A stretch of DNA of 64,000 bases, taken from contig JBBKWQ010000396.1 of assembly GCA_037969115.1 (NCBI GenBank), forward strand, positions 5,422 through 69,421, given 5' to 3'. Shown piece after piece: positions 13,905 to 38,418 of the stretch (positions are counted from its first letter, which is position 1; each line of letters starts with the position of its first letter). Both the position numbers and the translations under genes were made by a program. Below the pieces are notes generated by a model, which searched no databases, was not told the origin of the DNA, and saw only the letters and a list, made by a program, of their open reading frames with translations. This DNA is from Ilumatobacteraceae bacterium (lineage in GTDB: Bacteria; Actinomycetota; Acidimicrobiia; Acidimicrobiales; Ilumatobacteraceae).

Positions 13905-13944
13905 CGGCACCGGCCCGTAGCCACTCGGCTACGGGGCGGTGCCG
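13905..13944. terminator. GC-rich hairpin at the convergent potD / methyltransferase junction
   Basis: 13914-13922 (cccgtagcc) pairs perfectly with 13927-13935 (ggctacggg) around loop ACTC. After one G-G mismatch the stem extends with 13905-13912 pairing 13937-13944. There is no U-tract. It overlaps the last codons of the minus-strand gene. Confidence 0.45.
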
Positions 13945-14846
13945 TCCAGGCGGTACACGATCGATTTCAAGAACTCGGCATCTCCGGTCCGGTGAGCGGG
14001 CGCGACCACGTCGTCGAAACGGATGTGATCGGAACGACGTTTCGCCCTGAGTGGCAAGGTCATGCACGTCGTGAGCAATCGAGCCGCGATCGATTGTGCG
14101 ACTCGCTGATGACCGCCGGTGGTCATGGCGTGCTCGACGAGTGCTGCCGGGGGGGAGCCCTCGATCCGGTAGTCGATGCCCTCCTCCCATCGAAACTGCA
14201 CGATGCGGTGCTCGAAGCGTGAGTCGAGCAGGTCTGCCATCTCACCTTCGATGCCGGCTCTCTGGAGGTAGTCGTGGATGTCGCGATCGAAGTACGGGGC
14301 TGTCTTCGCCGTGAAGACCAGGGTCGAACCATCGAGGCGGACGAACCACAGGTGGCTCGGGAAGTCGAGGATCTTGGCGCTCGCAGCCTCGGGCACCTCG
14401 ATGTATCCGGCCCGAGAGACGCGGACCAGCTCGTCGATCACCGCGCCCGGATCGACGACGTGCTCGAGAACGTGGGAACAGATCGAGTAGTCGAATGCGC
14501 CGGTTGCGAAGGGCATCGACGCAGCATCGGCATCGAAGAGCGGTCGTGAGATCCGTGCCGCTCGGCGGCCGGAGCGCTGCCCGGCATGTTCGGCATCGAT
14601 GAAGCGATCGAGTAGCACGTCGGCTCGCCAATGGGGTTTGTCACCGCTGCCCACGTCGAGTACCAGGGAGTCGGGTCCGGCAGGGATGTCGATCCGACGC
14701 CGATGGAACAGCCGGAGCGACTCGATGACCTGCACCCAGGCAGTATCGCAGCTGTCCCTGTCTCTCGGGTGTGGAGGTGGCAGGATGGCCGCCGTGAGCG
14801 AGCGGACGGTGGTTGCGGCGTTCGATGTCGACGGCACGCTGACCAC
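13929..14846 (-). CDS. Class I SAM-dependent methyltransferase (Methyltransf_11-like)
   Basis: Motif I VLDVGSGDKP and post-I/II region FDYSICSHVLEHVVDP. The start is uncertain: GTG 14846 overlaps the divergent HAD gene, and GTG 14732 (VQVIESL...) is an alternative. Confidence 0.75.
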   Translation of the reverse strand: MVSVPSTSNAATTVRSLTAAILPPPHPRDRDSCDTAWVQVIESLRLFHRRRIDIPAGPDSLVLDVGSGDKPHWRADVLLDRFIDAEHAGQRSGRRAARISRPLFDADAASMPFATGAFDYSICSHVLEHVVDPGAVIDELVRVSRAGYIEVPEAASAKILDFPSHLWFVRLDGSTLVFTAKTAPYFDRDIHDYLQRAGIEGEMADLLDSRFEHRIVQFRWEEGIDYRIEGSPPAALVEHAMTTGGHQRVAQSIAARLLTTCMTLPLRAKRRSDHIRFDDVVAPAHRTGDAEFLKSIVYRLDGTAP

Positions 14847-15432
14847 CCGAGACTGTGTGGTTCCGTTCCTCGTGACGGTCTCATCGCTCCGTTCGCTGTG
14901 TCTCGGGATGTTGCGTCACCCGATAGCGGTTGCTCAAGCGATCGTGCGGCGTGACCGCGACCGGCTCAAGGCACTCGCCACGTCGGCGGCCTTGCGGGGC
15001 CGGCCCTCGGCCGATGTGCAGCGGTTCGCCGACGACTTCGGCCGCAACGCTGCAACCGATTGGCTTCGCACCGATACGGCAGCTCGGCTCGAGTGGCATC
15101 TGGCGCAGGGCCACACCGTGGTACTCGTGTCGGCGTCGTACGCCGTCTACCTCGACGCCTTCGGACGTGAACTCGGCGTTCACGGCGTGATCGCGACACG
15201 GATCGACGTCGATCCCGACGGTCGCTGCACGGGAAACCTCGACGGTCCGAACTGTCGAGGCGCTGAGAAGTGGATCCGGTTGTCGACGTGGCTCCGCGAC
15301 CAGGGGATCGACCGGGAGCAGGCCGAGATCTGGGCGTACGGCGATTCGAACGGTGACCGGGAAATGCTCGGCAAGGCCGATCATCCGGTGTGGGTCGGAC
15401 ATCGGCGCTCGGTGGTCAGTGCGACGCCGTGA
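14785..15432 (+). CDS. HAD-IB family phosphatase
   Basis: Motif I AAFDVDGTLT, motif II VLVSAS and motif IV YGDSNGDREML. ATG 14785 was chosen because the ORF-track N-extension is low-complexity. Confidence 0.8.
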   Translation: MAAVSERTVVAAFDVDGTLTTRDCVVPFLVTVSSLRSLCLGMLRHPIAVAQAIVRRDRDRLKALATSAALRGRPSADVQRFADDFGRNAATDWLRTDTAARLEWHLAQGHTVVLVSASYAVYLDAFGRELGVHGVIATRIDVDPDGRCTGNLDGPNCRGAEKWIRLSTWLRDQGIDREQAEIWAYGDSNGDREMLGKADHPVWVGHRRSVVSATP

Positions 15433-15526
15433 CCGGTGCAGGTCCCGATTCCATCGGGCCCTCCGCCGGTTCGAGGCGTCGACTGAGTAGCGTTGTCCAG
15501 TCCTCGGACTGAGGCAGCACCGTCCC

Positions 15527-16399
15527 ATGATTTCCTCGTTCCTCCGCGCAGCTCGGCCCAAACAGTGGCTCAAGAACATTCTCGTCTTCGCCGCGCCTGG
15601 CGCCGCCGCCGTGCTCGACGACCCGACGGAGTTGTCACGAGCACTGCTTGCTTTCGTCGCGTTCTGTCTCGCAGCGAGTGGCACCTACTATTGGAACGAC
15701 CTCTTCGACATCGACGCCGATCGTGCCCACCCGAAGAAGTCGAAGCGACCCATCGCGGCCGGTGAGATCGGGATCGGCGCTGCTCGCGTCGTGGGCACCG
15801 CGCTCTTGTTCGCCTCGATCGGCGTCATGGCACTGACCGAGCGGTGGCAGGCCGTGCTCGTGATCTCCACGTACATCGCCGTCACGCTGTCGTACACGAT
15901 CGTCCTCAAGCACATTGCGGTCGTCGACCTGATTGCCGTCGCCTCGGGCTTCGTGCTGCGCGCCGCCGGGGGTGCGACGGCGGCGGCGGTCGAGATGTCG
16001 AGTTGGTTCGTGTTGTGCACCACGTTCGGGTCGCTGTTCATCGTCGCCGGCAAACGGTACGCGGAGATCCGAGAACTCGGCGACGGGGCGCGTCACACTC
16101 GCTCCACGATGCACGAGTACAGCACCGACTATCTGCGGGTGGTGCTCACCATCGCCTGTGGCGGCGCAGTCGTGAGTTACTGCGTCTGGGCGTTCGAGCG
16201 CCGTGACATGTCGGGGAGCGAGTGGCCGTTCTACGAGCTGTCGATCGTGCCGATGCTCACCGCCCTCCTTCGATACGCACTCGTGCTCGACTCGGGCGAC
16301 GGCGCTGCCCCTGAGGATGTCTTCGCCAGCGACCGCGTGCTTCAGGTGCTCGGTCTGATCTGGATCGTGGTGTTCGGAATGGCAGTGTACACAGCATGA
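15527..16399 (+). CDS. ubiA: Decaprenyl-phosphate 5-phosphoribosyltransferase-like UbiA-family enzyme (Rv3806c type)
   Basis: RPKQWLKNILVFAAP..., Asp-rich motif NDLFDIDADRAHPKKSKRPIAAGEI (about 15695-15721) and a 290-aa polytopic profile. It is colinear with what I recall of M. tuberculosis Rv3806c. Confidence 0.85.
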   Translation: MISSFLRAARPKQWLKNILVFAAPGAAAVLDDPTELSRALLAFVAFCLAASGTYYWNDLFDIDADRAHPKKSKRPIAAGEIGIGAARVVGTALLFASIGVMALTERWQAVLVISTYIAVTLSYTIVLKHIAVVDLIAVASGFVLRAAGGATAAAVEMSSWFVLCTTFGSLFIVAGKRYAEIRELGDGARHTRSTMHEYSTDYLRVVLTIACGGAVVSYCVWAFERRDMSGSEWPFYELSIVPMLTALLRYALVLDSGDGAAPEDVFASDRVLQVLGLIWIVVFGMAVYTA

Positions 16400-17142
16400 A
16401 CGGACAGCCTGAGTACGCGGCGCTCTCGGAGCGCGTGGCGGCGATCGACGGGTGGATGTCGTCGGACCAAGGCGAACGTCTCTTCGACGCGGCGCGACGG
16501 TGTCGAACCGATGGGCAGATCGTCGAGATCGGAAGTTTCCGCGGGAAGTCGACCGTCGTTCTGGCGTCGGCCGCTCCCGAGCGCGTCACCGTCGTCGCGA
16601 TCGATCCTCATGCCGGCAATGACCGAGGTCCGCAAGAGATCGACGGATTCGAGCAGGCTGCCGCCACCGACTACGAGGCCTTCGTCTCCAATCTCGCCAG
16701 TTTCGCGGTCGCCGATCGAGTCCGTCACTTGCGGTGCTTCTCCGACGTGGCACATGACGAGGTCGCCGGTGACATCGATGTGCTCTACATCGACGGCGCC
16801 CACCGCTACGGACCCGCTCGCCAGGACATCGACGAATGGGGTGCACGGGTGGCCGATGGCGGCACGATGCTCATCCACGATTCGTTCTCGTCGATCGGCG
16901 TCACGATGGCGATCGGACGTTCGCTGATGCTCGGTCGGCGGTTCCGATACGTCGGCCGCTCCCGGTCGCTCGCCGAGTACCGGGCCGAACTCGGTGGCCG
17001 CGGGCGGGTTGCGAACGCCGCCCGACAACTCGCGCAGCTGCCGTGGTTCGTGCGCAACGTCGCGTTGAAGGTGCTGCTGTCGATCGGGCTCGGCAAGGCG
17101 ATGCACCGCCTCGGACGGAACGCCCCCGAATGGCCCTACTGA
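16396..17142 (+). CDS. Class I SAM-dependent methyltransferase (Methyltransf_24 / CmcI-like sugar O-methyltransferase type)
   Basis: IVEIGSFRGKSTVVLA (SAM motif I) and IDVLYIDGAHRYG...GGTMLIHD. ATGA overlap with ubiA at 16396-16399. The end overlaps the dprE1 start. Confidence 0.8.
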   Translation: MNGQPEYAALSERVAAIDGWMSSDQGERLFDAARRCRTDGQIVEIGSFRGKSTVVLASAAPERVTVVAIDPHAGNDRGPQEIDGFEQAAATDYEAFVSNLASFAVADRVRHLRCFSDVAHDEVAGDIDVLYIDGAHRYGPARQDIDEWGARVADGGTMLIHDSFSSIGVTMAIGRSLMLGRRFRYVGRSRSLAEYRAELGGRGRVANAARQLAQLPWFVRNVALKVLLSIGLGKAMHRLGRNAPEWPY

Positions 17143-18521
17143 GTTCCGTCGGCCAGGTAGCGTCCGCATCGATGGAGATCGGCCGATCGCAACAACTCAC
17201 GGGTTGGGGACAGACCTCGCCGACCCGGGCCCAGGTGTATGACCTCCACGTCGCCGATCTCCCCAAGCTGATCAGCCGTGCCGGGCATCGTGGCGTGATC
17301 TCGCGTGGTCTGGGTCGTTCGTACGGCGATCCGGCACAGAATGCCGGTGGTTCGGTGGTACGGCTCGTTCCCGGGCTCGAACCGGCCGAACTCGACGAAT
17401 CCACGGGCATCGTCAGTTGTCACGCCGGTGTGAGCATCGACGATCTGCTCGCGTTCCTCGTGCCGCGTGGTCGGTTCGTCCCGGTCACGCCCGGGACCCG
17501 CTTCGTCACCGTCGGCGGGGCGATCGCGAGCGACGTGCACGGCAAGAACCATCACGTCGACGGCTCGTGGGGACACGCGCTGCTATCGATGCGCCTGCTC
17601 ATGGCCGGCGGCGACATACGCGACGTCACCGCGGAGTCCGATCCGGGGCTGTGGTGGGCCACCATCGGGGGTATGGGTCTCACCGGCATCATCGTCGAGG
17701 CGACATTCGGGTCGATCGCGATCACGTCGAGTCGCTGCGTGGTCGACACCGACCGCGCGACCAACCTCGACGAGATGATGAGTCTGATGGAGTCGGGCGA
17801 TGCGCGCTACCGGTACTCGGTCGCCTGGATCGACCTGCTCGCGACGGGTGGGTCGCTCGGTCGCGGCGTGCTGACCAGCGGCGATCACGCCACGGCTGAT
17901 GTCGCCGGCGCCTCCGGTTCGCTCGAGCGGTATGCCAACCGGCGTCTCGCTGTCGTGCCGCCTGGTATGCCGAACGTACTCGTCCCAGCCACGGTGCGGG
18001 CGTTCAACGAGATGTGGTTCCGGAAGTCGCCGACCCATCGCGAGGGCGAGATCCAGTCGATCGGGCGGTTCTTCCACCCGCTCGACGGCGTTCGCGGTTG
18101 GAACCGGCTCTACGGACGGCCCGGCTTCCTCCAGCTCCAGTTCGTCCTGCCGTTCGGTGAGGAAGAGGCGTTGCGTTCGATCGTCGAGCGCGTCGCCGCG
18201 TCCGGCCATGCCAGCTTCTTGGCCGTCCTGAAACGATTCGGCGCCGGCAACGAAGCCATGCTGAGCTTTCCGAAGCCGGGCTGGACGCTCACGCTCGACC
18301 TGCCGGCCGGCCGCGACGTGCTGGGCCGTCTGCTCCACGAACTCGACGACACGATCCTGACCGCCGGCGGGCGTCACTACTTGGCCAAGGACGCGCACAT
18401 GTCGTCCGATGCGATGCGACAGGGATATCCACGACTCGAGGAGTGGCAGGAGCAGCGGCACAAGGCAGATCCGGACGGCGTCTGGGTGAGCGACCTGGCC
18501 CGGCGGCTCGACCTCGTCTGA
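17130..18521 (+). CDS. dprE1: Decaprenylphosphoryl-beta-D-ribose 2'-oxidase (FAD)
   Basis: QLTGWGQTSP, RGLGRSYGDPAQN, VTVGGAIASDVHGKNHH, GFLQLQFVLP and SFPKPGWTLTLDLP are colinear with M. tuberculosis DprE1 as I recall it. The start is ATG 17130 (463 aa) or ATG 17172 (449 aa). Confidence 0.9.
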   Translation: MALLSSVGQVASASMEIGRSQQLTGWGQTSPTRAQVYDLHVADLPKLISRAGHRGVISRGLGRSYGDPAQNAGGSVVRLVPGLEPAELDESTGIVSCHAGVSIDDLLAFLVPRGRFVPVTPGTRFVTVGGAIASDVHGKNHHVDGSWGHALLSMRLLMAGGDIRDVTAESDPGLWWATIGGMGLTGIIVEATFGSIAITSSRCVVDTDRATNLDEMMSLMESGDARYRYSVAWIDLLATGGSLGRGVLTSGDHATADVAGASGSLERYANRRLAVVPPGMPNVLVPATVRAFNEMWFRKSPTHREGEIQSIGRFFHPLDGVRGWNRLYGRPGFLQLQFVLPFGEEEALRSIVERVAASGHASFLAVLKRFGAGNEAMLSFPKPGWTLTLDLPAGRDVLGRLLHELDDTILTAGGRHYLAKDAHMSSDAMRQGYPRLEEWQEQRHKADPDGVWVSDLARRLDLV

Positions 18522-18572
18522 GGGAGCGTCGTCTTCGGGTTCGAGATGCACGAATGAAACGAGATGTGAGAG

Positions 18573-19343
18573 GTGTGCACAGTGCGCAATGCGGTGAATG
18601 AGAATCAGACGATCGTGGTGCTCGGGGGAACCTCCGACATCGGTGTCGCCATTGCGCGACGACTGGTGAACCCGACCACGCGCCACGTCGTGTTGGCTGC
18701 TCGCAACACCAACGCAGCGACGGCGCGGCTCGCCGACATCGGAGTCGACGGTGACGTGGCGAGCGTCGAACCGTTCGACGCGGATGACTCGAAGAGCCAC
18801 TCGGCGTTCATCGAGCGGTTGGCAGAACGGTATGGCGATCTCGATGTCGTGGTGATCGCGTTCGGCGTGCTGGGCAGTCAGGACGAGTTCGACGCCGACC
18901 CGGCGGCTGCAGCTGCGGCCGTAACCACGAACTACACCGGCGCCGTGAGTGCTGGACTTGCCGTCGCGGGCCAACTCCGCCGGCAGGGACACGGTTCGCT
19001 CGTGGTGCTGTCGAGTGTCGCAGGCGAGCGCGTCCGCGCTGCCAATTTCGTCTACGGCTCGTCGAAAGCCGGACTCGATGGCTTCGCCCAGGGCCTGGGA
19101 GACTCGCTGGCCGGGTCTGGCGCGAACGTCCTGGTCGTGAGGCCCGGGTTCGTGAAGTCCGCGATGACAGAAGGATTGCCGGCTGCCCCGTTCTCGACGA
19201 CGCCCGAAGCGGTCGCCGACGCGGTGGCAGGTGCACTCGGTTCACGACGGCGCACCATATGGGTGCCGGGCATCCTCCGGTTCGTGTTCTCGGCGCTGCG
19301 CCATGTACCCGGTCCGATCTGGCGGCGGTTGCCGCTCGGATGA
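18573..19343 (+). CDS. dprE2: Decaprenylphospho-2'-keto-ribose reductase (SDR)
   Basis: VVLGGTSDIGVAIA, LSSVAGERVRAANFVYGSSKAGLDGF, VLVVRPGFV and the C-terminal ALRHVPGPIWRRLP match the DprE2 (Rv3791) pattern end to end. 256 aa. Confidence 0.9.
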   Translation: MCTVRNAVNENQTIVVLGGTSDIGVAIARRLVNPTTRHVVLAARNTNAATARLADIGVDGDVASVEPFDADDSKSHSAFIERLAERYGDLDVVVIAFGVLGSQDEFDADPAAAAAAVTTNYTGAVSAGLAVAGQLRRQGHGSLVVLSSVAGERVRAANFVYGSSKAGLDGFAQGLGDSLAGSGANVLVVRPGFVKSAMTEGLPAAPFSTTPEAVADAVAGALGSRRRTIWVPGILRFVFSALRHVPGPIWRRLPLG

Positions 19344-19359
19344 TCGCGGTGCCCGCGCG

Positions 19360-22300
19360 TCAGGCAGTGCATCGCCGGTACAGGACGATCAGTCCGTTTT
19401 CGAAGCTGTCGACCTCGCAGAACTGATCTCGAATGACCTGATTCGGTTCGTCGGGTCCGAATTCCATCGACGAGTTGGGCTCGATCCATCCGTTCCAGAA
19501 ACCGGTCAGGATCACCCAATCTGCCGTTTCGATCTCGCGCGCCAGCATCGAACCCGGTGCGTTCGCGAGGCCGGGGTCCATCTCGATGTAATAGGTAGCC
19601 GGGTCGAGTTCGGGGAACAGGTAATAGAAGAAGACGTCGCTGTACCAGGTGCGGCGCAAGTCTTGCGGACCGACGAACAGTCGCTCGCCGGGTTGCGCCT
19701 CGGCATCGAGCGCCTCGATGACTCCGGCACTGGCACGCCAGGGCCGGACATCTCCCAGGTAGAACTTGCGTCCATCGCGCTCGACGGGGAAGGCAGCCGG
19801 TATGTCGCCGACCGAGATACGCGCGTAGTTCAGGTAGTAGCGGTACGTGAACAGCGGTGCGACGATCAGCATCAGCGCCGCCAGGACGGCGGCGGCCGTG
19901 ACGGTGCGACGGCGCGGGTGTGACCTGGGTTCGTGCAACCGCATCACCTCCCAGATCGCCAGCACCAGGAGCGGCCACGAGATGCACGTGACCCACGCCA
20001 GATGCGTCGAGTCGGGTCGTTGGAGCGCCTGCGGGACGATGCCGACTCCGATGATCGATCCCACGAGCAACACGTTCGCCGTCGCAGATCCGTCGGTCTT
20101 GTGGCGGAGCCAGATTGCGAACGCGACGAGCCCGGCAGCGATGACCAACATGAGCCAGAACCAGATGAACAACGACTGACTCGCCGGAAGCGAGGGAATC
20201 GGCCAGTAGGGCGGCACGGTTTCGGCAATTGCCTGGAGCGAACCGTCGAGTGAGTTCCAACTCGGCGGTGACGGCAGCTCGCGCCCTGCTCGTAGGTGGA
20301 ACACGGGGTCGCTGAACATGCCCTCGAACGAGGCCGACGGCCCGGCGATCGCCAGGTGGATCCACATCGGAATTGCGCCGATGACACCACCGACGAGGAG
20401 TGGTTTCACGGCGGCCCGGTGTTGCCAGGCGAGCCAGCCGGCGACGAGCGCCACCGCCAGGATCAGATCTGGCCGAAACGTGAGTGCGAGGCCGCCGAGC
20501 AGTCCTGCGCCGATCCAGTGATGTGTGGCGCTTTGCGCAACGGTGCGGTTGGTGGCGCGCAGAGCGACGATCGCGCTCCACAGCACCAGGGCGAGGCCGC
20601 CGTTCCACGCCATCGCCGTCAGGCCGATCGGCGTGAGGATGAGCAACGTCGAGAGCACGCCGACAGCGGTGGCCGCAGTGCGGCCCCAGGCTCGCGCCAG
20701 CGTGTAGAGCGCGAAGATGATGGCGAGATGCTGCAAGGTCCCGAATGCCCGCTCGGCGCCCAGGGTGAATCCGACCACCTTGAACCAGCCCATGAGGGCA
20801 TACAGAGATCCGGGGCCGTAGAGGTGGAGAAAGTCGACGTTGGGAACGTCGCCTTTCCACATCCGCTCGGGGAAGTAGAGCATGAAACCCTCCTCCATGG
20901 TGCCGCCGGTGGTGGAGAACAGGCCACGCAGCGGCAGAGCAACGGTGAGCAGGATCAGCCCGATCGACAACCAGCTGCGTCGCGCTCCCTGCGCCACGCG
21001 GCGCAGGCCACCCGAACCGCCGAGGACGTAGGCGACGTCGTCGTCGACCGGTCCAGACGCCTCGCTGCCGGTCTCCGTGCCTGGCTCTACGTCGGCGGGC
21101 AGGAGCCACTTCCACGCGCGTGACAACACGGGCACTGCGGCAACTGCGGCGAGAATGCACAGCACCGGTTCCATCGGCGCACGGAACCGTACGGTTCCGT
21201 AGGCGTAAGCAGCAGTGATGGTGACCGACAACGCCTGAGCGCCGAGCGGCAACAAACGGACGCGGCGACGCCTCAGCATGATCGCCCCGGCGACCGACGA
21301 TGCTGCCAACGCGAAGTACATGACGAGTCCGACCTTGGCCGACCGGATCTCGCGTCCCTCGATGGAGGACAGCTCGACGTTCTGCATCGGTCGGAAGAGC
21401 TCCCACTGCCTGGCAACGCGGATGGCGACCACCCGTGGTACGTCGTCGAGGTGGTCGCCCGCGTAATCGAGACCGATGGTTCTCCAGTACCGCGCCTTCT
21501 CCGAGCGGTCTCCCGGAGGTTCACCGAACTCGGCGCGGTGCTGCTCCTGACAGTCGAACGCCCAATAGCCCACCAGTCGCCCGGAATAGGTGAGATCGCA
21601 GTTGGCGTAGACGAGGAGTTCGTTCCCGTTCTCCGACAACGGAACGAACTCCTCGAACGTGGTCAGGTTTCGTGCCGTCCACGGCGCGAGCACCATCAGA
21701 CATGTCGCGCCGGCGAGTACGAGGTGTCGCCAACGGTCGCCGAGGTCGAGGTCGTAGTTCCGCAACATCCACGGCATGACCAGGAGTGGTGCGAGCAAGA
21801 GTCCCTCACCGCGCGTGAGCGCAGCGAGACCGATCAGCGCACCGATCGCCGCCGAGCACCACCACGTCGGGCGATCACGCCACCGATAGGCCAACAGCAC
21901 GCACGACGTGGTGAGCAACGCGAAAAGGCCCTCGGGGAAGAGCAGTGGATCGATCATCCACAGGTTGGGGTAGAGGGCCGCGAACACACCGGCGACGAGT
22001 GCAACGGCGCGCCCGCCGAGGCGGCGCGCGACCGACATCGTGACCGCCACAGTTGCCGTGCCGATGAGGATCGACACGAACTTGTGGTCGACATAACTGG
22101 TTCCGCCCAGCCTTGACGACAACGACAGGATCACCGGGTACAGCGGGCCGTGGAGAGCGCTGGGCAGGGGAGTGGCGGAGTCGAGCCAGTTCAGCGGCTC
22201 GGGGAAGCCACGACCCTCGGCGAGTGCGTTCGCGGTGACGTGGTAGAAGAGCGGGTCGCCGTCGTCGGTCTTGGTGGCGAGGATCCGCAGCCACGCCGTG

Positions 22301-23292
22301 ACACGCATCAACAGACCACCGCCGACGACACCGGCGAAGACGGCGGGATACCACCAGGCCGGCCAGCGACCCGTTCGCCAGCGAATGACCGGAAGTGCGC
22401 CTGCTGCGGTGATCACGACGCCGATCGCCACGGCCAGTGCGGCAGACCAGAGGAACAATGGAATCGCTGCAGCAGCGACGATCGATCCGTTCGGTGTGTC
22501 GACGTAGCTCTCGATGTGTTGCCGGGCAAGACCGCCGACCACGACCGATCCGGCGAGGGCCGACCCGGGCGCAGCGAACCCGACCCTCGAGAACCATCGC
22601 GACGGCGAACCGGCGGCGAGATGGATGCTCAGGACGATCAAACCGGCGACGGCGAGGTACGCGACCCGGCGGACGAGCAGATCGACGACACCGGTGACGG
22701 GTTCGCCGCGCGGAAGCCCACCGAGCCATGCCGTTGCCAACATGATCGCCGCCGCCACGGGCAGAATCCGTTTTCCGCTGCGAAGTGCTGCCGGTGGACC
22801 GACCCGAGCGATGGAGACGACGATGAGCGCCAGACCGATGGTGTCGATCGAACCTGCAACGAAGCCGAGCGCTTCGCGGGCACCGGCGGAAACTCGTGAC
22901 TCCATGGCCACGTGCACCGGCACACCCAGTGCGGCTATCGCCGCGCCGGCTGTCATCCAGAAGCGTGAGCCTCGTAGGCCCAGTTCGAGGCGGTCCGCAG
23001 TGACCAGGGCTGCGATCGCGACGATGATCACGACGACACCGACATCGAAACGAGCAATCAGCCGACCGAGCACAGATTCGGTCGAGCCGGTGAAGTGGCC
23101 GACCTCGGCTGCGATGTTCGCGAGACCTGCCAATGAAACCAGAGCAAACGTCCGCGCAGCCAAGGCAGGACTGCGATCGTGTCTCGGGGCCGTCCCTTCG
23201 GGAGCACGGGTCGTTTCGAGCGAGGTCACAACGGCTGCGAGTGTAGGTGGCCCACCCCTGTCACAATGTGTATCGATCTGCGAGCAGATCAC
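19360..23292 (-). CDS. 1310-aa polytopic membrane protein: unknown N-terminal TM module + PMT_2/ArnT-like GT-C module + second GT-C-like module with C-terminal globular domain
   Basis: Uninterrupted 3.9-kb ORF. aa ~311-730 are colinear with the divergent neighbour 23313-24614 (YPNLWM, GLAALTRGEGLLLAPLL, APWTARNL, ANC...Y...GYWAFDC, RFRAPMEPV). aa ~771-1310 form another multi-TM block plus a ~150-aa soluble tail. The true start is uncertain (GTG 23292 or a downstream GTG/TTG). Confidence 0.8.
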   Translation of the reverse strand: MICSQIDTHCDRGGPPTLAAVVTSLETTRAPEGTAPRHDRSPALAARTFALVSLAGLANIAAEVGHFTGSTESVLGRLIARFDVGVVVIIVAIAALVTADRLELGLRGSRFWMTAGAAIAALGVPVHVAMESRVSAGAREALGFVAGSIDTIGLALIVVSIARVGPPAALRSGKRILPVAAAIMLATAWLGGLPRGEPVTGVVDLLVRRVAYLAVAGLIVLSIHLAAGSPSRWFSRVGFAAPGSALAGSVVVGGLARQHIESYVDTPNGSIVAAAAIPLFLWSAALAVAIGVVITAAGALPVIRWRTGRWPAWWYPAVFAGVVGGGLLMRVTAWLRILATKTDDGDPLFYHVTANALAEGRGFPEPLNWLDSATPLPSALHGPLYPVILSLSSRLGGTSYVDHKFVSILIGTATVAVTMSVARRLGGRAVALVAGVFAALYPNLWMIDPLLFPEGLFALLTTSCVLLAYRWRDRPTWWCSAAIGALIGLAALTRGEGLLLAPLLVMPWMLRNYDLDLGDRWRHLVLAGATCLMVLAPWTARNLTTFEEFVPLSENGNELLVYANCDLTYSGRLVGYWAFDCQEQHRAEFGEPPGDRSEKARYWRTIGLDYAGDHLDDVPRVVAIRVARQWELFRPMQNVELSSIEGREIRSAKVGLVMYFALAASSVAGAIMLRRRRVRLLPLGAQALSVTITAAYAYGTVRFRAPMEPVLCILAAVAAVPVLSRAWKWLLPADVEPGTETGSEASGPVDDDVAYVLGGSGGLRRVAQGARRSWLSIGLILLTVALPLRGLFSTTGGTMEEGFMLYFPERMWKGDVPNVDFLHLYGPGSLYALMGWFKVVGFTLGAERAFGTLQHLAIIFALYTLARAWGRTAATAVGVLSTLLILTPIGLTAMAWNGGLALVLWSAIVALRATNRTVAQSATHHWIGAGLLGGLALTFRPDLILAVALVAGWLAWQHRAAVKPLLVGGVIGAIPMWIHLAIAGPSASFEGMFSDPVFHLRAGRELPSPPSWNSLDGSLQAIAETVPPYWPIPSLPASQSLFIWFWLMLVIAAGLVAFAIWLRHKTDGSATANVLLVGSIIGVGIVPQALQRPDSTHLAWVTCISWPLLVLAIWEVMRLHEPRSHPRRRTVTAAAVLAALMLIVAPLFTYRYYLNYARISVGDIPAAFPVERDGRKFYLGDVRPWRASAGVIEALDAEAQPGERLFVGPQDLRRTWYSDVFFYYLFPELDPATYYIEMDPGLANAPGSMLAREIETADWVILTGFWNGWIEPNSSMEFGPDEPNQVIRDQFCEVDSFENGLIVLYRRCTA

Positions 23293-23312
23293 AGATCCGA
23301 ACGCACTGGCCG

Positions 23313-29146: not shown

Positions 29147-29157
29147 CCACCGGGTAC

Positions 29158-31281
29158 TCAGTCCACGGGAGCGCAAGCGCCGACGGGCATGTCGTATCGC
29201 TCGTCGTTGGCCCAGTCGCCACTCGCCCAGGCGATGGGCGACGCCGGTTCAACGCCGTCGAGTCGCTGGTCGAGCTGGTCGGTGAGCCAGTGGGCAAAGC
29301 TCGCAGCGCCGGCGGGGCACACGTGAACTCGATCCCGTTTGCGCTCGGGGGTGCCGTCACCGTCGGCGTCGAGCGTGGGTTCGGTACCCCACAGGGACGA
29401 GGCGTCGACGAACCAGGTCATTGTCGAGTCGACATCGGCGATCTCTCGCGCGATCGCAGCGAGAGTTTCGGTACCGGAATCATCGAGCGCCGTCGGTGGC
29501 GAGCTGACATAGAACACGCGGATCCCGTTCTCACGAATCAGGAAGTGGAAGGCGTCCAGTGCCTCACGTTGTTCCGCACTCGAGTCGTCGGCATCCCAGA
29601 TCGAGAGCTGCAAGATGACGGTGTCGGGCCGGATTCGATCGATCGCGCTGCTCAGTCGACCGACGACGGAGTCGATGTCGTCGCCACCGACGAGCCGTAC
29701 GCCCGGAAACGCTTCGCTCACGGCGTCGACTCCGGCACTGTCGAGCGCTGCCAGCAGACCGGGAGCGAGGTCGTATGCAATCGAATCGCCGAGCCAGAGC
29801 ACCCTGCCGGCGTCGGGCTGCGGCACCACGATCGTCGTGCTCGGAAGAGCAGCGACCGTGGTCGTGGTCGTGGTGAGCGACGTGCTGGCCGCGGAGTTCG
29901 ATGCGTTGTTCGGCGCCATGGTGGAGGCGGTGGCCGAGACCGGCTGGTTGGCGAGCCGAGCCGGGCTTGCCGACCCGGCTGCGGTGTGCACAGGCGCGAG
30001 CGTCGTCGCAGGCGCAGCGATCGATGCGACAGCGATCGTCGTGCTCGGTTGATCCAACGGCGACGTCGTCGTCGTGCCGATCGATGCGGGGTCGAATGCG
30101 GCGATCTCGGTCGTGGGCGCCGGAATGACGAGCAGAACGGCGGCCACCGCCGCAACTGCCTGGACGAGCCTCGGAATCCGACGTGGCCCGAAGGGTGCTG
30201 GTACGGCGAAGCGAACCGGGTTCTCGACGAACCGGAGCGACAGCACCGCACACGCCACCGAAACAGCGATCCGCACGAGCGTGAGGGTCCACCCATCGAC
30301 GCCCATCCGATCGGGCGAAAGGACCACGTACACCGGCCAGTGCCACAGGTACAGGCCGTAGGAGTGCCGGCCGATCCACCGGAGTGACGGTGCGGCCAGC
30401 AGGCCCGCTGCCCGACCGTGAGAACCCGCCGCCAGCAGCGCCACGATCACCGCGCACAGGGCGCTGTGCGCCACCAGTCCACCCCGGTAGAGGACCTGCG
30501 ACGACGCACCGTCGATCGTGAACCACGCGAGGGCGAGAGCTGCCAGCGCGAGCAGGAGGAGTGCATCGACGCGCTCCGGCCGGGCGTCGACCATGCGGCG
30601 TCCCAGACGCACTGCCGGGGCCGTCGCCAGTGCGGCACCGAGCAGGATCGACGATGCACGCGTATCGGTACCCATGTAGACGCGTGTCGGATCGCCGCCG
30701 CCGTAGAGGAGGGCCATCACGGCGACCGACGCAATGGCGCCCGCGACCGCCACGCCCGACAACACGGCGTGCGGTCTGCGTGCGAATCGCCACACGATGA
30801 CCACAACGAGTGGCCACAGCACGTAGAACTGTTCCTCGATGGCCAGGCTCCACAAGTGGTCGAACATGCCGGGCTGCTGGAACGACGCCCAATAGCCGCC
30901 GGACTCGCTGATCTCGAACCAGTTCGAGCCATAGAGCAGTGCCCATGGTCCGCTACGGCGCACCCCGTCGATCTCGGCGGGCGATCCCCAGATCGCGACC
31001 CACACCGACGCGACGGCGATCATCACCAGAACAGCAGGAAGCAGGCGTCTCGCCCTCCGCGTCCAAAACGTCGTGAGCGAGATGCCTCCGCCGTCGGTGT
31101 CGCGCAGGAGCAACGACGTGATGAGGAAGCCCGAGAGCACGAAGAACAGGTCGACACCGAGGAATCCGCCCTGGAGGTGGCCCGCGTGGAACACGAGCAC
31201 GCCGACGACCGCCAGCGCTCGAAGCCCGTCGAGTGGAGCGATGTGCCCCCAGGGGACCGTAGGAGATGTCGAGGCAGCCAT
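29158..31281 (-). CDS. Acyltransferase-3 membrane domain fused to a C-terminal SGNH hydrolase domain (second copy)
   Basis: LDGLRALAVVGVLVFHAGHLQGGFLGVDLFFVLSGFLITSLLL (AT3), a ~100-aa Thr/Ser/Ala/Pro linker, then VLWLGDSIAYD (GDS) and DRVHV (DxxH). 707 aa. Confidence 0.85.
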   Translation of the reverse strand: MAASTSPTVPWGHIAPLDGLRALAVVGVLVFHAGHLQGGFLGVDLFFVLSGFLITSLLLRDTDGGGISLTTFWTRRARRLLPAVLVMIAVASVWVAIWGSPAEIDGVRRSGPWALLYGSNWFEISESGGYWASFQQPGMFDHLWSLAIEEQFYVLWPLVVVIVWRFARRPHAVLSGVAVAGAIASVAVMALLYGGGDPTRVYMGTDTRASSILLGAALATAPAVRLGRRMVDARPERVDALLLLALAALALAWFTIDGASSQVLYRGGLVAHSALCAVIVALLAAGSHGRAAGLLAAPSLRWIGRHSYGLYLWHWPVYVVLSPDRMGVDGWTLTLVRIAVSVACAVLSLRFVENPVRFAVPAPFGPRRIPRLVQAVAAVAAVLLVIPAPTTEIAAFDPASIGTTTTSPLDQPSTTIAVASIAAPATTLAPVHTAAGSASPARLANQPVSATASTMAPNNASNSAASTSLTTTTTTVAALPSTTIVVPQPDAGRVLWLGDSIAYDLAPGLLAALDSAGVDAVSEAFPGVRLVGGDDIDSVVGRLSSAIDRIRPDTVILQLSIWDADDSSAEQREALDAFHFLIRENGIRVFYVSSPPTALDDSGTETLAAIAREIADVDSTMTWFVDASSLWGTEPTLDADGDGTPERKRDRVHVCPAGAASFAHWLTDQLDQRLDGVEPASPIAWASGDWANDERYDMPVGACAPVD

Positions 31282-31296
31282 TGGGGTGAAGGTCGC

Positions 31297-32019
31297 TCAG
31301 TTGAGCGATCGGATGCGATCGCCGACCGACGAATACTTCACGATGCACACCAAAGCGCGAACCCCGTCGCGCCAACCGATCTTCTTGCCCTCTTCATAGG
31401 TCCGACCGTCGTAACTGATGCCGACCTCGAAGAAACGAATGCGGAGCTTGGCGAGCTTCGCGGTGACCTCGGGCTCGAAGCCGAATCGGTCTTCCTGGAG
31501 TTCGATCGACTGGATGATGTCGCGTCGGAACGCCTTGTAGCAGGTCTCCATGTCGGTGAGATTCAAGTCGGTGAACAGGTTCGACAGCAGGGTCAGGAAG
31601 CGGTTGCCCATCGAGTGACGGAAGTAGAGCACCCGATGCGGTCTGCCTGACAGGAACCTCGATCCGTACACGACGTCGGCCCGGTCGTCGATGAGCGGGC
31701 CGATGAGATCGCCGAACTCGGCCGGGTCGTATTCGAGGTCGGCATCCTGCACCACGACGAACTCGGCCGTCGCCAACGAAAAGCCGGTGCGGAGCGCAGC
31801 GCCCTTACCCCTGTTGTGTTCGTGCAGTTCGACTCTGACCCGCGGATCGGTGACCCCGGCGAGCAGATCACGCGTGCCGTCGGTGGATCCGTCGTCGACC
31901 ACGACGATCTCGGCGACCCATGGCGAGCTCAACACGCGTTCGAGGAGGTCGAGCACGGTGGCTCGCTCGTTGAAGCACGGAACGACGACCGTCAGACAAG
32001 GGTGTGGGAAGTCGCTCAC
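31297..32019 (-). CDS. Glycosyltransferase family 2, polyprenyl-phosphate sugar synthase-like
   Basis: [43 protein letters not shown] and VYGSRF are GT2/DPG-synthase-like motifs. The GTG start overlaps the AftD-like stop (GTGA). Confidence 0.85.
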
Positions 32020-35000: not shown

Positions 35001-36260
35001 GGTGAACATCACGGGCAGGTTGGCGACTGCCAAGACGATGAGCCCGCCAGCCGGGTACCAACGGCGACCACTCGGGAGACGCCGGCTCGTCGCGGCCACC
35101 AGCGCACCGGCGCCGAGTGCCAGGCCGAGCACCGACATCGGCAGAGCACGTGCGCTGCTGCGAAGTGCGAGCGACCATGTCGAACGTGACGACTCGGCGA
35201 ACGGGCTCAGGAGTGGATGCGGGTCATCGATGGGATGGACACCGATCGCCAGGAAGGTGCCAACCACGACCAGCAAGATCGCGAACCCACGGTCTCGGAA
35301 TCGGACCGCGACGAGCCCGACGAAACCGGCCGCAGTGAGCGCAGCGCTGGTGACCACGAGGATGCCCGACGACATGTATGCCTCGGCAGCCGAGGTGGTG
35401 AAACCGATCGGGTCGCGGACGTAGAAGAGCCAGTAGCCCATGCCGCGGAGCGTCTCCATGCTGTTCGACGTGAGCGAGACCGCCTCGAGCGTTTCGCTGA
35501 AACCGAGCACGTTGGCGCCGTATCGGCCCTGCACCGACAGCATCACGATCCACCACAGCGAGACCGGGATACACAGAGCGGCGACGCGTGCGATCGTGGC
35601 GGCGACGCGTCTCCACGTCACTTGCCCACCGACGGCGGAATGCAAAAGCCACAGCAGGGGGGCCGGCACGATCATCGCTGTAGCGGTCGCGTTCGGGGCG
35701 CTGACCGTAGCCACGGCCAATGCCAAAATCGCAGCGTGCCGCCACTTCGAGACCGTTGCAGCCTTGATCGTGAGCCCGATGATCCATCCGAGACCGGCAA
35801 ACGGCAGCAACATCAACGACGTGCGCGACAGATACGGCAGCACGTAGGGCGAAAGCTGGTACACCGCCCCGACCGCCACGGCAGCGCCGCTCGCGTACCG
35901 CTCTCCGCCGATTCCGAGCATTCCGGCCAGCCATCGCGCACCGAGGCCGGCGACGAACAGCAGCGTCCCGATCCAGAGTCGGTGGGCGATCCAGTCGGGC
36001 ACCTGCAACACGTCGAACAGCCAGAACCACGGTCCGGACGGCCAGAGATAACTGATGGTCTGATGGGGAACCCATCCGGCGAACTGGCGCCCGTCGAACG
36101 TGTACGGGGCGTCGGAGATGAGTCGGCCCGGGTCGAGATACAGGTACAACTTGGTGTCGGCCGGCATTCGGCCCCATCCGGCGGTCAGCGCCGGCAGGTA
36201 GGCCAGACAGGCGAGCACCACGAGTCCCGTCGACGGTCGGCGCCAACGGGTCGCGATCAC
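32016..36260 (-). CDS. aftD: Alpha-(1->3)-arabinofuranosyltransferase AftD-like GT-C protein (DUF3367 family), 1414 aa
   Basis: N-terminus [37 protein letters not shown]...[16 protein letters not shown] (motif at ~36129-36161) is the family hallmark. A ~900-aa soluble region carries two discoidin-like segments ([30 protein letters not shown]). There is also a C-terminal TM cluster. The GTG 36260 start forms a GTGA overlap with the upstream gene. The 1977-aa ORF-track entry is an upstream read-through artefact. Confidence 0.85.
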
Positions 36261-37480
36261 GGAATGGCCCCGAAGACTCCGTACAGACCGGTGAGTACCG
36301 CCAGCCCGGCGCCGCACGTGACGAGGTACATGTCCCACCCGAATCGGTCGCGTCGAGGCCACCAAGCGGCAACCGGAATGAACAGCGGGAACGCCGTGAA
36401 CAGGAATCGCGGCCGAGCCGTCACCGTTGCCGGCAACAGCATCAGCACGATCACGACCAGAACGTACGCGAGGATCGGCAGCGGAAGGGGGCGTTTCCAT
36501 GCGCACCAGAGGCCACCGAACATTGCGAGCAATGACACCACGGTCAGTGCGTCGGTGGGCGAGGTGAGCGGCTCCGAGAGGAACGACAGTGTGGTGCGCA
36601 CCGCGGTGCCTCCGAAGCTGGTGCCTTCGGACCACGCCTCGCTCTGGATACGGAACCAGACTCCCTGTTCGCCAGTGCGCCGACCGAGCCAGTATTGGAA
36701 ACCGATGAAACCGATCGGGCTGAGCGCCGGGGCGATGAGAGCCTTCCAGTCCCGGCGATCGATGATCGCGATCGCCGCAGCGACGGCGCAGGCGGCAATG
36801 AGCGCGACCCCGTTCGGGCGAGTCGCCGTGCCGATGGCCGCCGCGATACCGGCGAGCAGCCAACGCTCGTCGTGCAACAGGAGCAGGCAGGCAGCGGCTG
36901 CCACGATGAGGGTGGCCTCGGAGTATGCGAACGACAAGACGTACGACCCCGGGAAGACAGCGAACAGGATCATCGCTCGTACTGCGGTATCCATGTCGGA
37001 CAGACGAAGCGCCAACTTGCCGACCAACACGATGGCGATCAGTGACAGCACCAGATTCGTGAGGAGTGCGGCGAATGTGTCGCCGCCGGGCAATACGAAG
37101 TTGACCGTCCGGACCAACATCGGGAAGACAGGGAAGAATGCGCCGCTCGCCTCGACCTGCTCGTAGGTGATGTTCGGCGGGATGAATCGCGGGTACCCGC
37201 TTCGCGCAACCTCCATGTACCATCGCCCGTCCCACGACATCAACACGTCGGTGATGAGTCCGACCGCATTGTCGGGTCGCGGTTCGCCTGCCTTGTTCGA
37301 GTCGACGACCTGCTGCGTCGCCTGTACACCGGCACCGGCGATGACACACAGTCGGGCGACGAAGAACGCGACGAACCCGTAGGCGACACCGCGTCGCCAG
37401 CTGATCTGTTCCGGGGTGTTGGCGGCGACTGCGAGGGAGACTTCGGTCGTCGGGGAAGAATCGGCGCTCACGTTCACCAT
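36257..37480 (-). CDS. GT-C-type membrane glycosyltransferase (PIG-V/mannosyltransferase-like)
   Basis: 407 aa and polytopic. WDGRWYMEVARSGYP...AFFPVFPMLVR resembles bacterial PIG-V-type mannosyltransferases. The family assignment is from memory and moderately certain. Confidence 0.7.
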   Translation of the reverse strand: MVNVSADSSPTTEVSLAVAANTPEQISWRRGVAYGFVAFFVARLCVIAGAGVQATQQVVDSNKAGEPRPDNAVGLITDVLMSWDGRWYMEVARSGYPRFIPPNITYEQVEASGAFFPVFPMLVRTVNFVLPGGDTFAALLTNLVLSLIAIVLVGKLALRLSDMDTAVRAMILFAVFPGSYVLSFAYSEATLIVAAAACLLLLHDERWLLAGIAAAIGTATRPNGVALIAACAVAAAIAIIDRRDWKALIAPALSPIGFIGFQYWLGRRTGEQGVWFRIQSEAWSEGTSFGGTAVRTTLSFLSEPLTSPTDALTVVSLLAMFGGLWCAWKRPLPLPILAYVLVVIVLMLLPATVTARPRFLFTAFPLFIPVAAWWPRRDRFGWDMYLVTCGAGLAVLTGLYGVFGAIP

Positions 37481-38418
37481 CGATGCATCGGAAGGACAGG
37501 CTTTCGCGGTCCGAACCTCGGCGCCCCGTGACCGCTTCGTCCGAGTGCGTTGATGACCCTCCCGCGTTGCCCACGATAGGGCTCGAGAAGCTCCAACATG
37601 CGGTCATCCGTGCCCCTGGGCTCTTTGGCGAGAGCCCAGGCGACGGTGTTCGGAAAGTGAAAGTCGCCGACCGGGACGCTGTCGGGATCACCGAGTGCGG
37701 TCGCGAGGGTCGATCCGATCGTCCAGGCACCGATACCGGGCAGGTGCGCGAGCCGTTGGGCGATCTGTTCGCTCGGTAGCTCGGACCACTGCCACAATCG
37801 ATCGGCGATGCGGGCGATCTGATTGAGGGCGCGCGCTCGTTTGGTCTCGATACCGAGGGGGTGGAACCACCAGGCCGGACGGTTGGCGAGTGTTTCCGGA
37901 GACGGGGGGAGGCGGAGCCCCTCGAACGGGCCCGGTGCCGACTCACCAAGTTCGGTGCAGAGTCGAGACCACTGCCGCATCGCCTCTCCGGCCGTGATCC
38001 GTTGGGCGATGATCACTGGGAGCATGTCGTGATAAATCGTGCCGCTGGCGCCGAACCGCGTGGTGCGGTACGCCTGCAGCGCAGCTGCGACGACCGGTTG
38101 CGCGTCTGGGAACACCGGAGGTGTGTCGTGATCGCCACACAACGAACCCACGCGGTCGAGCAACCAGTCACCACCGGGGCCCCAGGCCATCGCCGACCGA
38201 CCAGCCCTTGCAGTGGTGGCGGGGTCGGCCGACCACGTGATGTGGATCGTGCCGGGACCGTCGGGTGTGTACGAAGCGCGAATGAACTCACGGTCGTTCA
38301 CGCGGGTCGTGAGGTCGAACCGCCCGGTCTGGAACGCGGCGAGCGTGTGCCGGAGGGATGTGATCACGGCTTCGCAGCTGGGGGTGCCCGGGACGGTCGA
38401 CGCGGGCGTCTGCTTCAC
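37474..38418 (-). CDS. DNA-3-methyladenine glycosylase II family (AlkA-like, HhH-GPD)
   Basis: Helix-hairpin-helix LPGIGAWTIGSTLATALGDPDSVPVGDFHF with a catalytic Asp. 314 aa. The stop overlaps the next gene's ATG by 7 nt. Confidence 0.8.
   Translation of the reverse strand: MKQTPASTVPGTPSCEAVITSLRHTLAAFQTGRFDLTTRVNDREFIRASYTPDGPGTIHITWSADPATTARAGRSAMAWGPGGDWLLDRVGSLCGDHDTPPVFPDAQPVVAAALQAYRTTRFGASGTIYHDMLPVIIAQRITAGEAMRQWSRLCTELGESAPGPFEGLRLPPSPETLANRPAWWFHPLGIETKRARALNQIARIADRLWQWSELPSEQIAQRLAHLPGIGAWTIGSTLATALGDPDSVPVGDFHFPNTVAWALAKEPRGTDDRMLELLEPYRGQRGRVINALGRSGHGAPRFGPRKPVLPMHRW

Follow-up and report, generated by a model that had tools for sequence, protein, structure and literature searches.

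A putative envelope-glycan locus of Acidimicrobiia that joins an arabinose-donor operon to five GT-C modules

Gene content and the arabinose-donor operon

We analysed a 64,000-nucleotide stretch of DNA from an Ilumatobacteraceae bacterium (contig JBBKWQ010000396.1, positions 5,422 to 69,421; hereafter the window), in which positions 13929 to 38418 hold 17 genes in approximately five transcription units spanning approximately 24 kb (Table 1). An operon for a lipid-linked arabinofuranose (Araf) donor of the decaprenyl-phospho-arabinose (DPA) type lies there together with five glycosyltransferase modules of the GT-C fold and several accessory enzymes. Genes were called using third-position G+C content and frame plots and then checked with Pfam and NCBIfam models, which were run on approximately 55 open reading frames (ORFs) over the 64 kb. 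The G+C content is uniform across the window at approximately 65%. The Pfam and NCBIfam searches confirmed the gene content that had been read from the sequence beforehand, namely a UbiA-family enzyme, a flavin adenine dinucleotide (FAD)-dependent oxidase, a short-chain dehydrogenase/reductase (SDR), a 1414-residue AftD-type protein, two GT2 and one GT4 glycosyltransferases, two AT3 proteins with SGNH domains, two S-adenosylmethionine (SAM) methyltransferases and one HAD phosphatase.

Table 1. Genes and modules at positions 13929 to 38418 of the window, grouped by transcription unit; a number after "vs" is the cut-off of the model.
Unit	Feature	Positions	Strand	Support
1	SAM-dependent methyltransferase, Methyltransf_11 type (MT11)	13929-14846	-	PF08241 34 bits vs 21.2
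2	HAD-IB family phosphatase	~14785-15432	+	PF12710 118 bits; TIGR01490 142 bits vs 98.3
2	UbiA-family polyprenyl(decaprenyl)-phosphate 5-phosphoribosyltransferase, Rv3806c homologue	15527-16399	+	NF008978 equivalog
2	SAM methyltransferase, Methyltransf_24 type (MT24)	16396-17142	+	PF13578 70.6 bits
2	DprE1-type FAD-dependent polyprenylphosphoryl-ribose 2'-oxidase	17130-18521	+	NF053785 equivalog
2	DprE2-type SDR 2'-keto reductase	18573-19343	+	NF053786 equivalog
3	1310-residue ORF, convergent with unit 2	19360-23292	-	
3	N-terminal region of the 1310-residue ORF, ~330 residues	22303-23292	-	~9 predicted transmembrane helices
3	GT-C module 1, residues ~331-751, PMT_2/ArnT-like	21040-22302	-	PF13231 43.6 bits; PF02366 23.6 bits vs 22.7
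3	GT-C module 2, residues 752-1310	19360-21039	-	fold match
4	PMT_2-type GT-C, first gene of the operon	23313-24614	+	PF13231 35.2 bits vs 26.1
4	AT3-SGNH membrane O-acyltransferase	24611-26671	+	PF01757 82 bits; PF13472, PF19040
4	GT4 (GT-B) cytoplasmic nucleotide-sugar glycosyltransferase	26668-27822	+	PF00534 101 bits
4	Single-helix membrane protein, 192 residues	27819-28397	+	one predicted transmembrane helix
4	GT2, Dol-P-Man-synthase-like polyprenyl-phosphate hexose synthase	28418-29146	+	PF00535 104 bits; start 28418 probable
5	HhH-GPD-like protein, 314 residues, first gene of the operon	37474-38418	-	PF00730 20.4 bits vs 26.2
5	GT-C, PMT_2/GT87/PIG-V-like	36257-37480	-	PMT_2 26.9 bits vs 26.1; GT87 24.6 bits vs 25; PIG-V 17.9 bits
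5	AftD-type GT-C, 1414 residues	32016-36260	-	PF11847 (GT-C_AftD) 285.5 bits vs 26, residues 24-670
5	GT2, polyprenyl-phosphate sugar synthase-like	31297-32019	-	PF00535 118 bits
5	Second AT3-SGNH O-acyltransferase	29158-31281	-	PF01757 106.5 bits

The genes are linked into operons by overlapping start and stop codons, and the ATGA, GTGA and TTGA junctions that had been proposed are real. ATGA overlaps join UbiA to MT24, the PMT_2-type GT-C of unit 4 to its AT3-SGNH neighbour and GT4 to the gene downstream of it. The AT3-SGNH gene and GT4 share a TTGA, and GTGA overlaps couple the GT87/PIG-V-like GT-C to AftD and AftD to its GT2. MT24 and DprE1 overlap by 13 nt. Rfam and tRNA scans of the window gave no matches.

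For comparison, one genome per species was scanned with the 1310-residue protein of unit 3, and related loci were selected only on its C-terminal GT-C module (module 2). The scan gave 47 loci with a best identity of 66%, all of them from Acidimicrobiia: Ilumatobacteraceae metagenome-assembled genomes (MAGs), Desertimonas flava and unclassified Acidimicrobiia or Actinomycetota MAGs. It had been considered that the host might be one of the mycolata carrying an already characterised locus; the confinement of all related loci to Acidimicrobiia speaks otherwise.

The donor pathway is predicted to be of the DPA type, an assignment that holds for three enzymes at the level of equivalog models. UbiA scored 344.6 bits against NF008978 (cut-off 207), DprE1 538.6 bits against NF053785 (cut-off 500) and DprE2 310.2 bits against NF053786 (cut-off 250). 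UbiA is also colinear with the Rv3806c structure 8j8j (211 bits), and DprE1 aligns end to end with the Mycobacterium tuberculosis DprE1 structures (378 bits). All six peptides quoted in the original prediction were found exactly: RPKQWLKNILVF and NDLFDIDADRAHPKK in UbiA, which also contains RPKQW and NDLFDIDAD (of the NDxxDxxxD type), RGLGRSYGD and GGAIASDVHGKNHH in DprE1, and FVYGSSKAGLDGF and ALRHVPGPIWRRLP in DprE2, where the catalytic motif YGSSK (YxxxK) is present as well.

DprE1 keeps the lysine of the M. tuberculosis YTAKD stretch, here YLAKD, the catalytic Lys418. At the cysteine of the M. tuberculosis GWNICVD stretch, the benzothiazinone-reactive Cys387, the enzyme of the locus has a threonine instead (GWTLTLDLP). 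This residue is not a defining feature of DprE1. Benzothiazinones attack the cysteine, and the threonine in its place predicts a natural resistance of the enzyme to covalent inhibitors of that type.

The HAD-IB gene, coding on the plus strand by frame plot, lies directly upstream of UbiA, and it adjoins UbiA in 26 of 34 assessable loci. We propose that it encodes the polyprenyl-phospho-5-phosphoribose 5-phosphatase, as a functional analogue of the PAP2 enzyme Rv3807c. The step was given to this gene because it adjoins UbiA and because HAD-family phosphoribose phosphatase domains fused to polyprenyl-phosphoribose synthases (PPPRS) carry out the dephosphorylation elsewhere (Kelly et al., PMC11127046). 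No ORF scanned in the 64 kb matched PAP2, and the HAD-IB enzyme is likely to be a non-homologous replacement. MT24, which lies inside the operon, was assigned no name in the NCBIfam scan. The second methyltransferase, MT11, is divergent from the donor operon and has candidate starts at 14846, 14837 and 14735; its homologues (52-71% identity) adjoin the HAD gene or a GT-C in at least 17 related loci.

GT-C modules and accessory enzymes

The five GT-C modules of the locus, which come from four unrelated sequence families, are real. Four had been predicted besides the AftD-type protein, and these were borne out by PMT_2 Pfam matches and by AlphaFold models whose structural matches are mostly GT-C enzymes. 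For module 1 and the PMT_2-type GT-C of unit 4 the fold is supported by PMT_2 scores above cut-off, and for module 2 and the GT87/PIG-V-like protein by Foldseek. Searches of PDB sequences returned nothing for module 1, module 2 (as a profile) or the GT87/PIG-V-like protein. The acidic residues expected in loop 1 of GT-C enzymes are conserved: D69 is invariant and E49/E50 near-invariant in one alignment (A1), and D84 is invariant in another (A2).

The GT-C most closely tied to the donor operon is module 2. It forms the C-terminal part of the 1310-residue ORF, in which an N-terminal polytopic region is followed by two GT-C modules. No Pfam model matched module 2 above threshold (PMT_2 reached a sub-threshold 18 bits), and no relative was found among PDB sequences with either the single sequence or a 31-sequence profile. 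Its AlphaFold2 model has a mean predicted local distance difference test score (pLDDT) of 80 and a predicted TM-score (pTM) of 0.84, and Foldseek matched it to ArnT (E 5e-7, TM-score approximately 0.5), STT3, ALG3, AftA, AglB, PimE and EmbB. By this model module 2 is a GT-C, and it belongs to an unclassified family outside the described ones. In most relatives it is a stand-alone gene, convergent with DprE2. We propose that it is an Araf transferase, its linkage to the donor operon pointing to the donor.

Module 1, whose PMT_2 match covers residues 381-538 of the ORF, is paralogous to the PMT_2-type GT-C that opens unit 4 (37.5% identity over 397 residues). Its fusion to module 2 recurs in five species (L001-L005) and in several database proteins of 816-946 residues. 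Homologues of the unit 4 GT-C, at 45-65% identity, are present in L001-L005, L026, L029, L030, L034 and L045. The N-terminal region of the 1310-residue ORF matched no Pfam or NCBIfam model and has approximately 35% identity to its counterparts in L001, L003 and L004. The first 60 or so codons of the ORF are weakly coding and the signal fades past approximately 23100; the true start is probably at 23073-23229. A flippase role for the N-terminal 330 residues was considered and dropped, given the lack of a family match and the weak conservation.

The AftD-type protein has an N-terminal GT-C domain, a large extracytoplasmic region and C-terminal transmembrane helices, the membrane segments falling at residues 12-424 and 1256-1402. 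It is colinear with Mycobacterium abscessus AftD (6w98) from residue 13 to 1315 (18 to 1311 in the latter; 94 bits) and has a weak discoidin-type match at residues 730-834. Equivalents of E251 and D474 of the M. abscessus enzyme are kept in a phmmer alignment that assumes a three-residue numbering offset and is of low quality locally.

For the GT87/PIG-V-like protein, the AlphaFold2 model has a pLDDT of 79.7 and a pTM of 0.82, and the top 37 Foldseek matches are all GT-C enzymes or GT-C-fold membrane proteins. These include STT3, AglB, PglB, Pmt4, ArnT, ALG9, PimE (TM-score 0.45), Emb and GPI-MT-I. The protein is a candidate polyprenyl-phosphate-mannose-dependent transferase.

The expectation that Emb, AftA-C and galactan genes are lacking was upheld for every sizeable ORF of the 64 kb. 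Models for Emb (GT53), AftA (GT85), AftB (GT89), AftC (GT87), Glf and GlfT1/2 gave no match there, the sole trace of these families being the sub-threshold GT87 score of the GT87/PIG-V-like protein. The models for GtrA-like Rv3789 and LCP proteins likewise matched none of the window's ORFs.

Both GT2 proteins are of the polyprenyl-phosphate-sugar-synthase type, in agreement with their original description as Dpm1/Ppm1-like, and their nearest solved relatives are the Pyrococcus furiosus dolichol-phosphate-mannose synthase (DPMS), ArnC and GtrB. The unit 4 GT2 is closest to P. furiosus DPMS (5mlz, 116 bits), followed by ArnC. The unit 5 GT2, which is translationally coupled to the AftD-type gene through the GTGA overlap, scored 112 bits with the AglJ model and 65 bits with the PpgS model, both under the cut-offs, and its PDB relatives are P. 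furiosus DPMS (54 bits), ArnC and GtrB. No transmembrane helix is predicted in either protein. Neither passes any equivalog cut-off that would define its sugar. Pairs of a GT2 and a GT-C recall PpgS/Rv3779. In L048 and L050 a GT2 is convergent to a GT-C of the GT87/PIG-V-like type; it is only 32% identical to the unit 5 GT2 of the window and, judged by eye rather than by direct alignment, resembles the DPMS-like GT2 of unit 4 more. This resemblance suggests that the DPMS-like GT2 and the GT87/PIG-V-like GT-C may form a synthase/GT-C pair.

GT4 is generic: the NCBIfam scan gave no equivalog, and among PDB sequences it comes closest to MshA, Gtf1 and PimA (46-50 bits; PimA 46). In 12 related loci the gene immediately upstream of the module-2 GT-C is a GT4 homologue (62-74% identity). 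GT4 is a candidate primer-building enzyme. The earlier suggestion that the product is more like lipoarabinomannan than like arabinogalactan found no specific support, GT4 being generic and no phosphatidylinositol (PI)-mannoside or Mpt-type gene (PimA/PimB, PimE, MptA/MptB) being recognisable; no specific model for these passed its cut-off in or near the locus.

The two AT3-SGNH proteins are paralogous (39% identity over 359 residues) and distantly like the mycobacterial SucT, at 71 bits (unit 4; cut-off 1275) and 78 bits (unit 5; again far under the cut-off). The 192-residue single-helix protein has no Pfam match, and counterparts with 35-41% identity occupy the same position in L001, L003 and L004.

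The gene at the end of the locus, the weakly HhH-GPD-like one, does not encode a glycan enzyme by homology. It is nevertheless translationally coupled to the GT-C beside it, which it overlaps by 7 nt (ATGGTGA), and the pairing is conserved. Homologues in L048 (9084-10007) and L049 have 53% identity and the same 7-nt overlap. In L050 a 263-residue unannotated gene (9121-9912) occupies this position, 88 nt upstream of the GT-C.

Conservation and synteny across Acidimicrobiia

A tblastn search of the related loci with the window proteins showed that the full gene order is kept in the closest MAGs, L001, L003 and L004, with 51-78% identity for most proteins. The least conserved are the single-helix protein and the N-terminal part of the 1310-residue ORF (approximately 35-41%). 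Downstream of the module-2 GT-C, DprE2 was found in 40 of 42 assessable loci, no more than 1.2 kb away in 37 of these 42. Among loci with at least 7 kb of downstream sequence, DprE1 was present in 33 of 34, UbiA in 28, the HAD gene in 26 and MT24 in 25. In 23 of 35 loci the 10 kb upstream of the module-2 GT-C contain an AftD homologue. The arrangement is beyond chance, since dozens of independent genomes share it. When the ORFs of the 47 loci were grouped by single linkage, over-long ORF calls in this high-GC DNA blurred the clusters, which were used only to choose neighbour families for Pfam.

The flanks are conserved as well. Next to the donor operon of distant relatives lie genes for 5-enolpyruvylshikimate-3-phosphate (EPSP) synthase, prephenate dehydrogenase, ScpA/ScpB and a tRNA synthetase, and the same genes occupy positions 2205-8840 of the window. 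On the other flank, SBP5 and xanthine-dehydrogenase genes are found in the window as in relatives. L050 and L006, which adjoin on a single contig, together show the same super-locus over approximately 40 kb. Because the flanks are syntenic in distant relatives and the G+C content is uniform, the locus looks old and vertically inherited. On the same grounds of uniform composition and syntenic flanks, a horizontally acquired island was rejected.

Two observations concern the surroundings of related loci. In the metagenome contig L052 (ENA ERZ27237492), positions 1-7279 carry two wax-ester synthase/DGAT genes, an MMPL transporter and a FadD-type AMP ligase next to the cluster of GT-C and donor operon, a lipid-export set reminiscent of mycobacterial envelope loci; the contig carries the protein cluster that contains the Desertimonas flava homologue. 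Separately, a divergent gene of 608-626 residues lies beside the operon-linked GT-C in L051 (8027-9907) and L052 (8103-9929). The L052 copy has a weak PTPS_related (PF10131) match and the L051 copy has no Pfam match; it is possibly a further GT-C-like membrane protein, absent from the window.

Proposed glycan and alternative explanations

We read these genes as a vertically inherited envelope-glycan locus of an Acidimicrobiia bacterium, devoted to the extracytoplasmic assembly of an Araf- and hexose-containing, O-acylated glycan, and we put the probability of this reading at roughly two in three. It builds on the family membership, folds, operon coupling and conservation reported above, from which we infer every catalytic step, the pairing of donors with enzymes and the nature of the product.

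In the proposed pathway, the UbiA-type enzyme would move 5-phosphoribose from phosphoribosyl pyrophosphate (PRPP) onto polyprenyl phosphate at the cytoplasmic face of the membrane, and the neighbouring HAD-IB phosphatase would take off the 5-phosphate. DprE1, with its FAD, would then oxidise C2' and DprE2 reduce it again, giving polyprenyl-phospho-D-arabinofuranose. In parallel, the two soluble Dpm1-like GT2s would make polyprenyl-phospho-hexose donors, one of them probably carrying mannose, as the GT2 concerned is DPMS-like, and GT4 would probably make a primer from nucleotide sugars. Once the donors were flipped, the five GT-C modules (the AftD-type enzyme, the GT-C linked to the DPA operon, the two PMT_2 paralogues and the GT87/PIG-V-like enzyme) would add Araf and hexose to an acceptor glycan outside the membrane, where the two AT3-SGNH enzymes would O-acylate it. 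SAM being cytoplasmic, the two methyltransferases would have to work on that side of the membrane, with lipid-linked sugars or the primer as substrates.

Several points weigh against this reading. The similarity of the AftD-type protein to the mycobacterial enzyme is low (94 bits), and of the three acidic residues proposed for catalysis in M. abscessus AftD, E475 aligns with a proline in the phmmer alignment, whose local quality is low. Because the AftD-type gene is translationally coupled to a GT2, its donor is ambiguous and could be the product of that GT2 rather than the Araf donor. Chemotaxonomy of an Iamiaceae strain, from the same class, lists rhamnose, ribose, mannose and galactose without arabinose. 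The locus has no recognisable gene for a flippase, an LCP ligase, a lipid anchor or polymer export. In pentofuranose systems the flippase role has been proposed for MATE proteins (PMC11127046); no MatE gene lies within 13929-38418, and the only copy in the window (883-2208, minus strand) is 12 kb upstream of the locus. Finally, conserved synteny of separate pathways may account for part of the clustering. A glycan containing Araf and hexose is plausible.

One rival is the most serious, because the parts of the locus separate in some relatives. On this account the locus is a composite: the donor operon and one or two GT-Cs would form a small system of the three-component pentofuranose type for side-chain arabinosylation, and the PMT_2/GT87-like GT-Cs with the GT2s would serve a separate mannosylation (protein O-mannosylation or lipomannan-like) that shares the neighbourhood. 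Three-component systems with DprE1/E2 do add single Araf side chains (PMC11127046). In relatives, the GT87/PIG-V-like GT-C with its HhH-like partner and a DPMS-like GT2 can be found approximately 9-20 kb from AftD, and on one metagenome contig (L048 and L051) this GT-C is approximately 370 kb from the module-2 GT-C. AftD was not within 10 kb in 12 of 35 loci, and module 1 barely clears the PMT cut-off. The fusion of modules 1 and 2 in one polypeptide in several species is harder to reconcile with two separate systems, as is the distant clade L028-L035, in which GT4, AT3, the PMT_2 GT-C and MT11 accompany the donor operon and the module-2 GT-C. The PMT_4TMC domain that bacterial Pmt enzymes have in addition was not found here by the Pfam scan, and an enzyme as large as AftD that has carbohydrate-binding regions points to a polymer as the acceptor. 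We regard a composite locus as unlikely.

A protein acceptor is a good deal less probable. Surface proteins such as pilins, S-layer proteins or lipoproteins would then be O-glycosylated with Araf and hexose, much as TfpW acts on the Pseudomonas aeruginosa pilin. The PMT/PMT_2-type GT-Cs would fit such a role, and Pseudomonas PPPRS and pilin O-glycosylation with Araf are mentioned in PMC11127046. The locus itself, however, holds no pilin, S-layer or other obvious protein-target gene and has no TfpW-like context, and the combination of AT3-SGNH enzymes, five GT-C modules and an AftD-type enzyme is more typical of polysaccharide assembly. The decoration of a secondary metabolite, for which the proposed arabinosylation of a cyclolipodepsipeptide by DPA-pathway homologues and a membrane glycosyltransferase is a precedent (the arabimalamides; PMC13110770), is very improbable: a natural-product cluster was rejected since no NRPS, PKS or other scaffold genes were found in the 64 kb, and class-wide conservation and synteny with housekeeping genes are unlike typical biosynthetic gene clusters.

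A close parallel to an envelope glycan of this kind is the DPA and arabinan machinery of Mycobacteriales. Common to both are UbiA, DprE1 and DprE2 at the equivalog level, an AftD-type GT-C of the same length and layout, the extracytoplasmic GT-C logic and, more distantly, the SucT-like AT3 acyltransferases. There are also differences. The host here belongs to the class Acidimicrobiia and all four donor genes are in one operon; the HAD-IB phosphatase stands in the place of the PAP2 enzyme Rv3807c and a methyltransferase is embedded in the operon. Mycobacteriales have Emb, AftA-C, Glf, GlfT and Rv3789, whereas the window has none of these and the most operon-linked GT-C belongs to no described family.

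Outside the mycolata, P. aeruginosa PA7 reportedly arabinosylates its pilin by means of TfpW together with DprE1, DprE2 and UbiA homologues. This is the same donor pathway used by a GT-C, although there the acceptor is a protein, the GT-C is single and the host is Gram-negative, and the locus described here has no pilin context. The three-component pentofuranose systems (Kelly et al. 2024, PMC11127046; GT136) share with the locus a PRPP-dependent polyprenyl-phosphate-ribose synthase, a HAD-family phosphatase, optional DprE1/E2 epimerisation to Araf and a GT-C. In those systems synthase and HAD domain form one fusion protein, the locus also encodes a MATE flippase, and a lone GT-C attaches single residues to an O antigen as side chains; here HAD is a gene of its own, the only MatE is 12 kb away and there are five GT-C modules including an AftD-type one. 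That the donor pathway exists outside the mycolata is established, from the Pseudomonas pilin, O antigens (PMC11127046) and a Streptomyces-type metabolite (PMC13110770).

AftD homologues have been described in 11 orders beyond Corynebacteriales, with a mean length of approximately 1400 residues, and the published alignment includes one from Ilumatobacter nonamiensis of the Acidimicrobiales (Tan et al., bioRxiv 10.1101/2019.12.22.885152 / Mol Cell 2020). That study lists the homologues without the genomic context, donor operon or GT-C set of Acidimicrobiia. Save for this listing, the literature that we searched contains nothing that connects Acidimicrobiia, Ilumatobacter or Desertimonas with arabinose, DprE1 or arabinosyltransferases. 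The gene-level calls are not new, since NCBI models would name the three donor enzymes and the Ilumatobacter AftD homologue was listed before. In that literature we found no account of the whole locus in Acidimicrobiia, of its synteny across the class, of the dprE2-linked unclassified GT-C, of the HAD replacement or of the embedded methyltransferase. Acidimicrobiia with this locus, which are distant relatives of mycobacteria and common in the environment, probably make an envelope polysaccharide that contains arabinose and is as yet undescribed.

D-arabinan and its lipid-linked donor are viewed as signatures of the mycobacterial envelope, and DprE1 and Emb are major drug targets. Acidimicrobiia are a deep-branching, environmentally abundant class of Actinomycetota that includes freshwater and marine plankton lineages, and the presence of a syntenic donor operon throughout the class suggests that envelope glycans with Araf have an older origin and a wider distribution within Actinomycetota than the mycolate lineage has. 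With an AftD-type enzyme and an unclassified GT-C rather than Emb and AftA-C, the locus would represent a natural experiment in building arabinan with a different enzyme set. The dprE2-linked GT-C family would be a new candidate family of arabinofuranosyltransferases, and the embedded methyltransferase and the HAD phosphatase are candidate new accessories to the donor pathway. More tentatively, and at somewhat less than even odds, Acidimicrobiia may ancestrally make a D-Araf envelope polymer through their own DPA-dependent GT-C family (560 residues, stand-alone or fused, convergent with dprE2), with the operon methyltransferase possibly giving an O-methylated lipid-linked pentofuranose, in which case arabinan chemistry would predate the mycolate lineage. 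Cultured relatives include Ilumatobacter spp. and Desertimonas flava.

Two further genes of the window, away from the locus, deserve mention. At 9484-10857 (plus strand), a PotA-like ABC transporter ATPase has an in-frame stop at 10048-10050 within its Q-loop (VFQN*ALFPHL), and is either a pseudogene or the result of a sequencing error. At 53519-54757 (minus strand), a predicted lipoprotein that lacks a significant Pfam match has a signal peptide with an LAAC lipobox, acidic TDTTEAMAEEE repeats and an unusually high third-position G+C content of 0.84.

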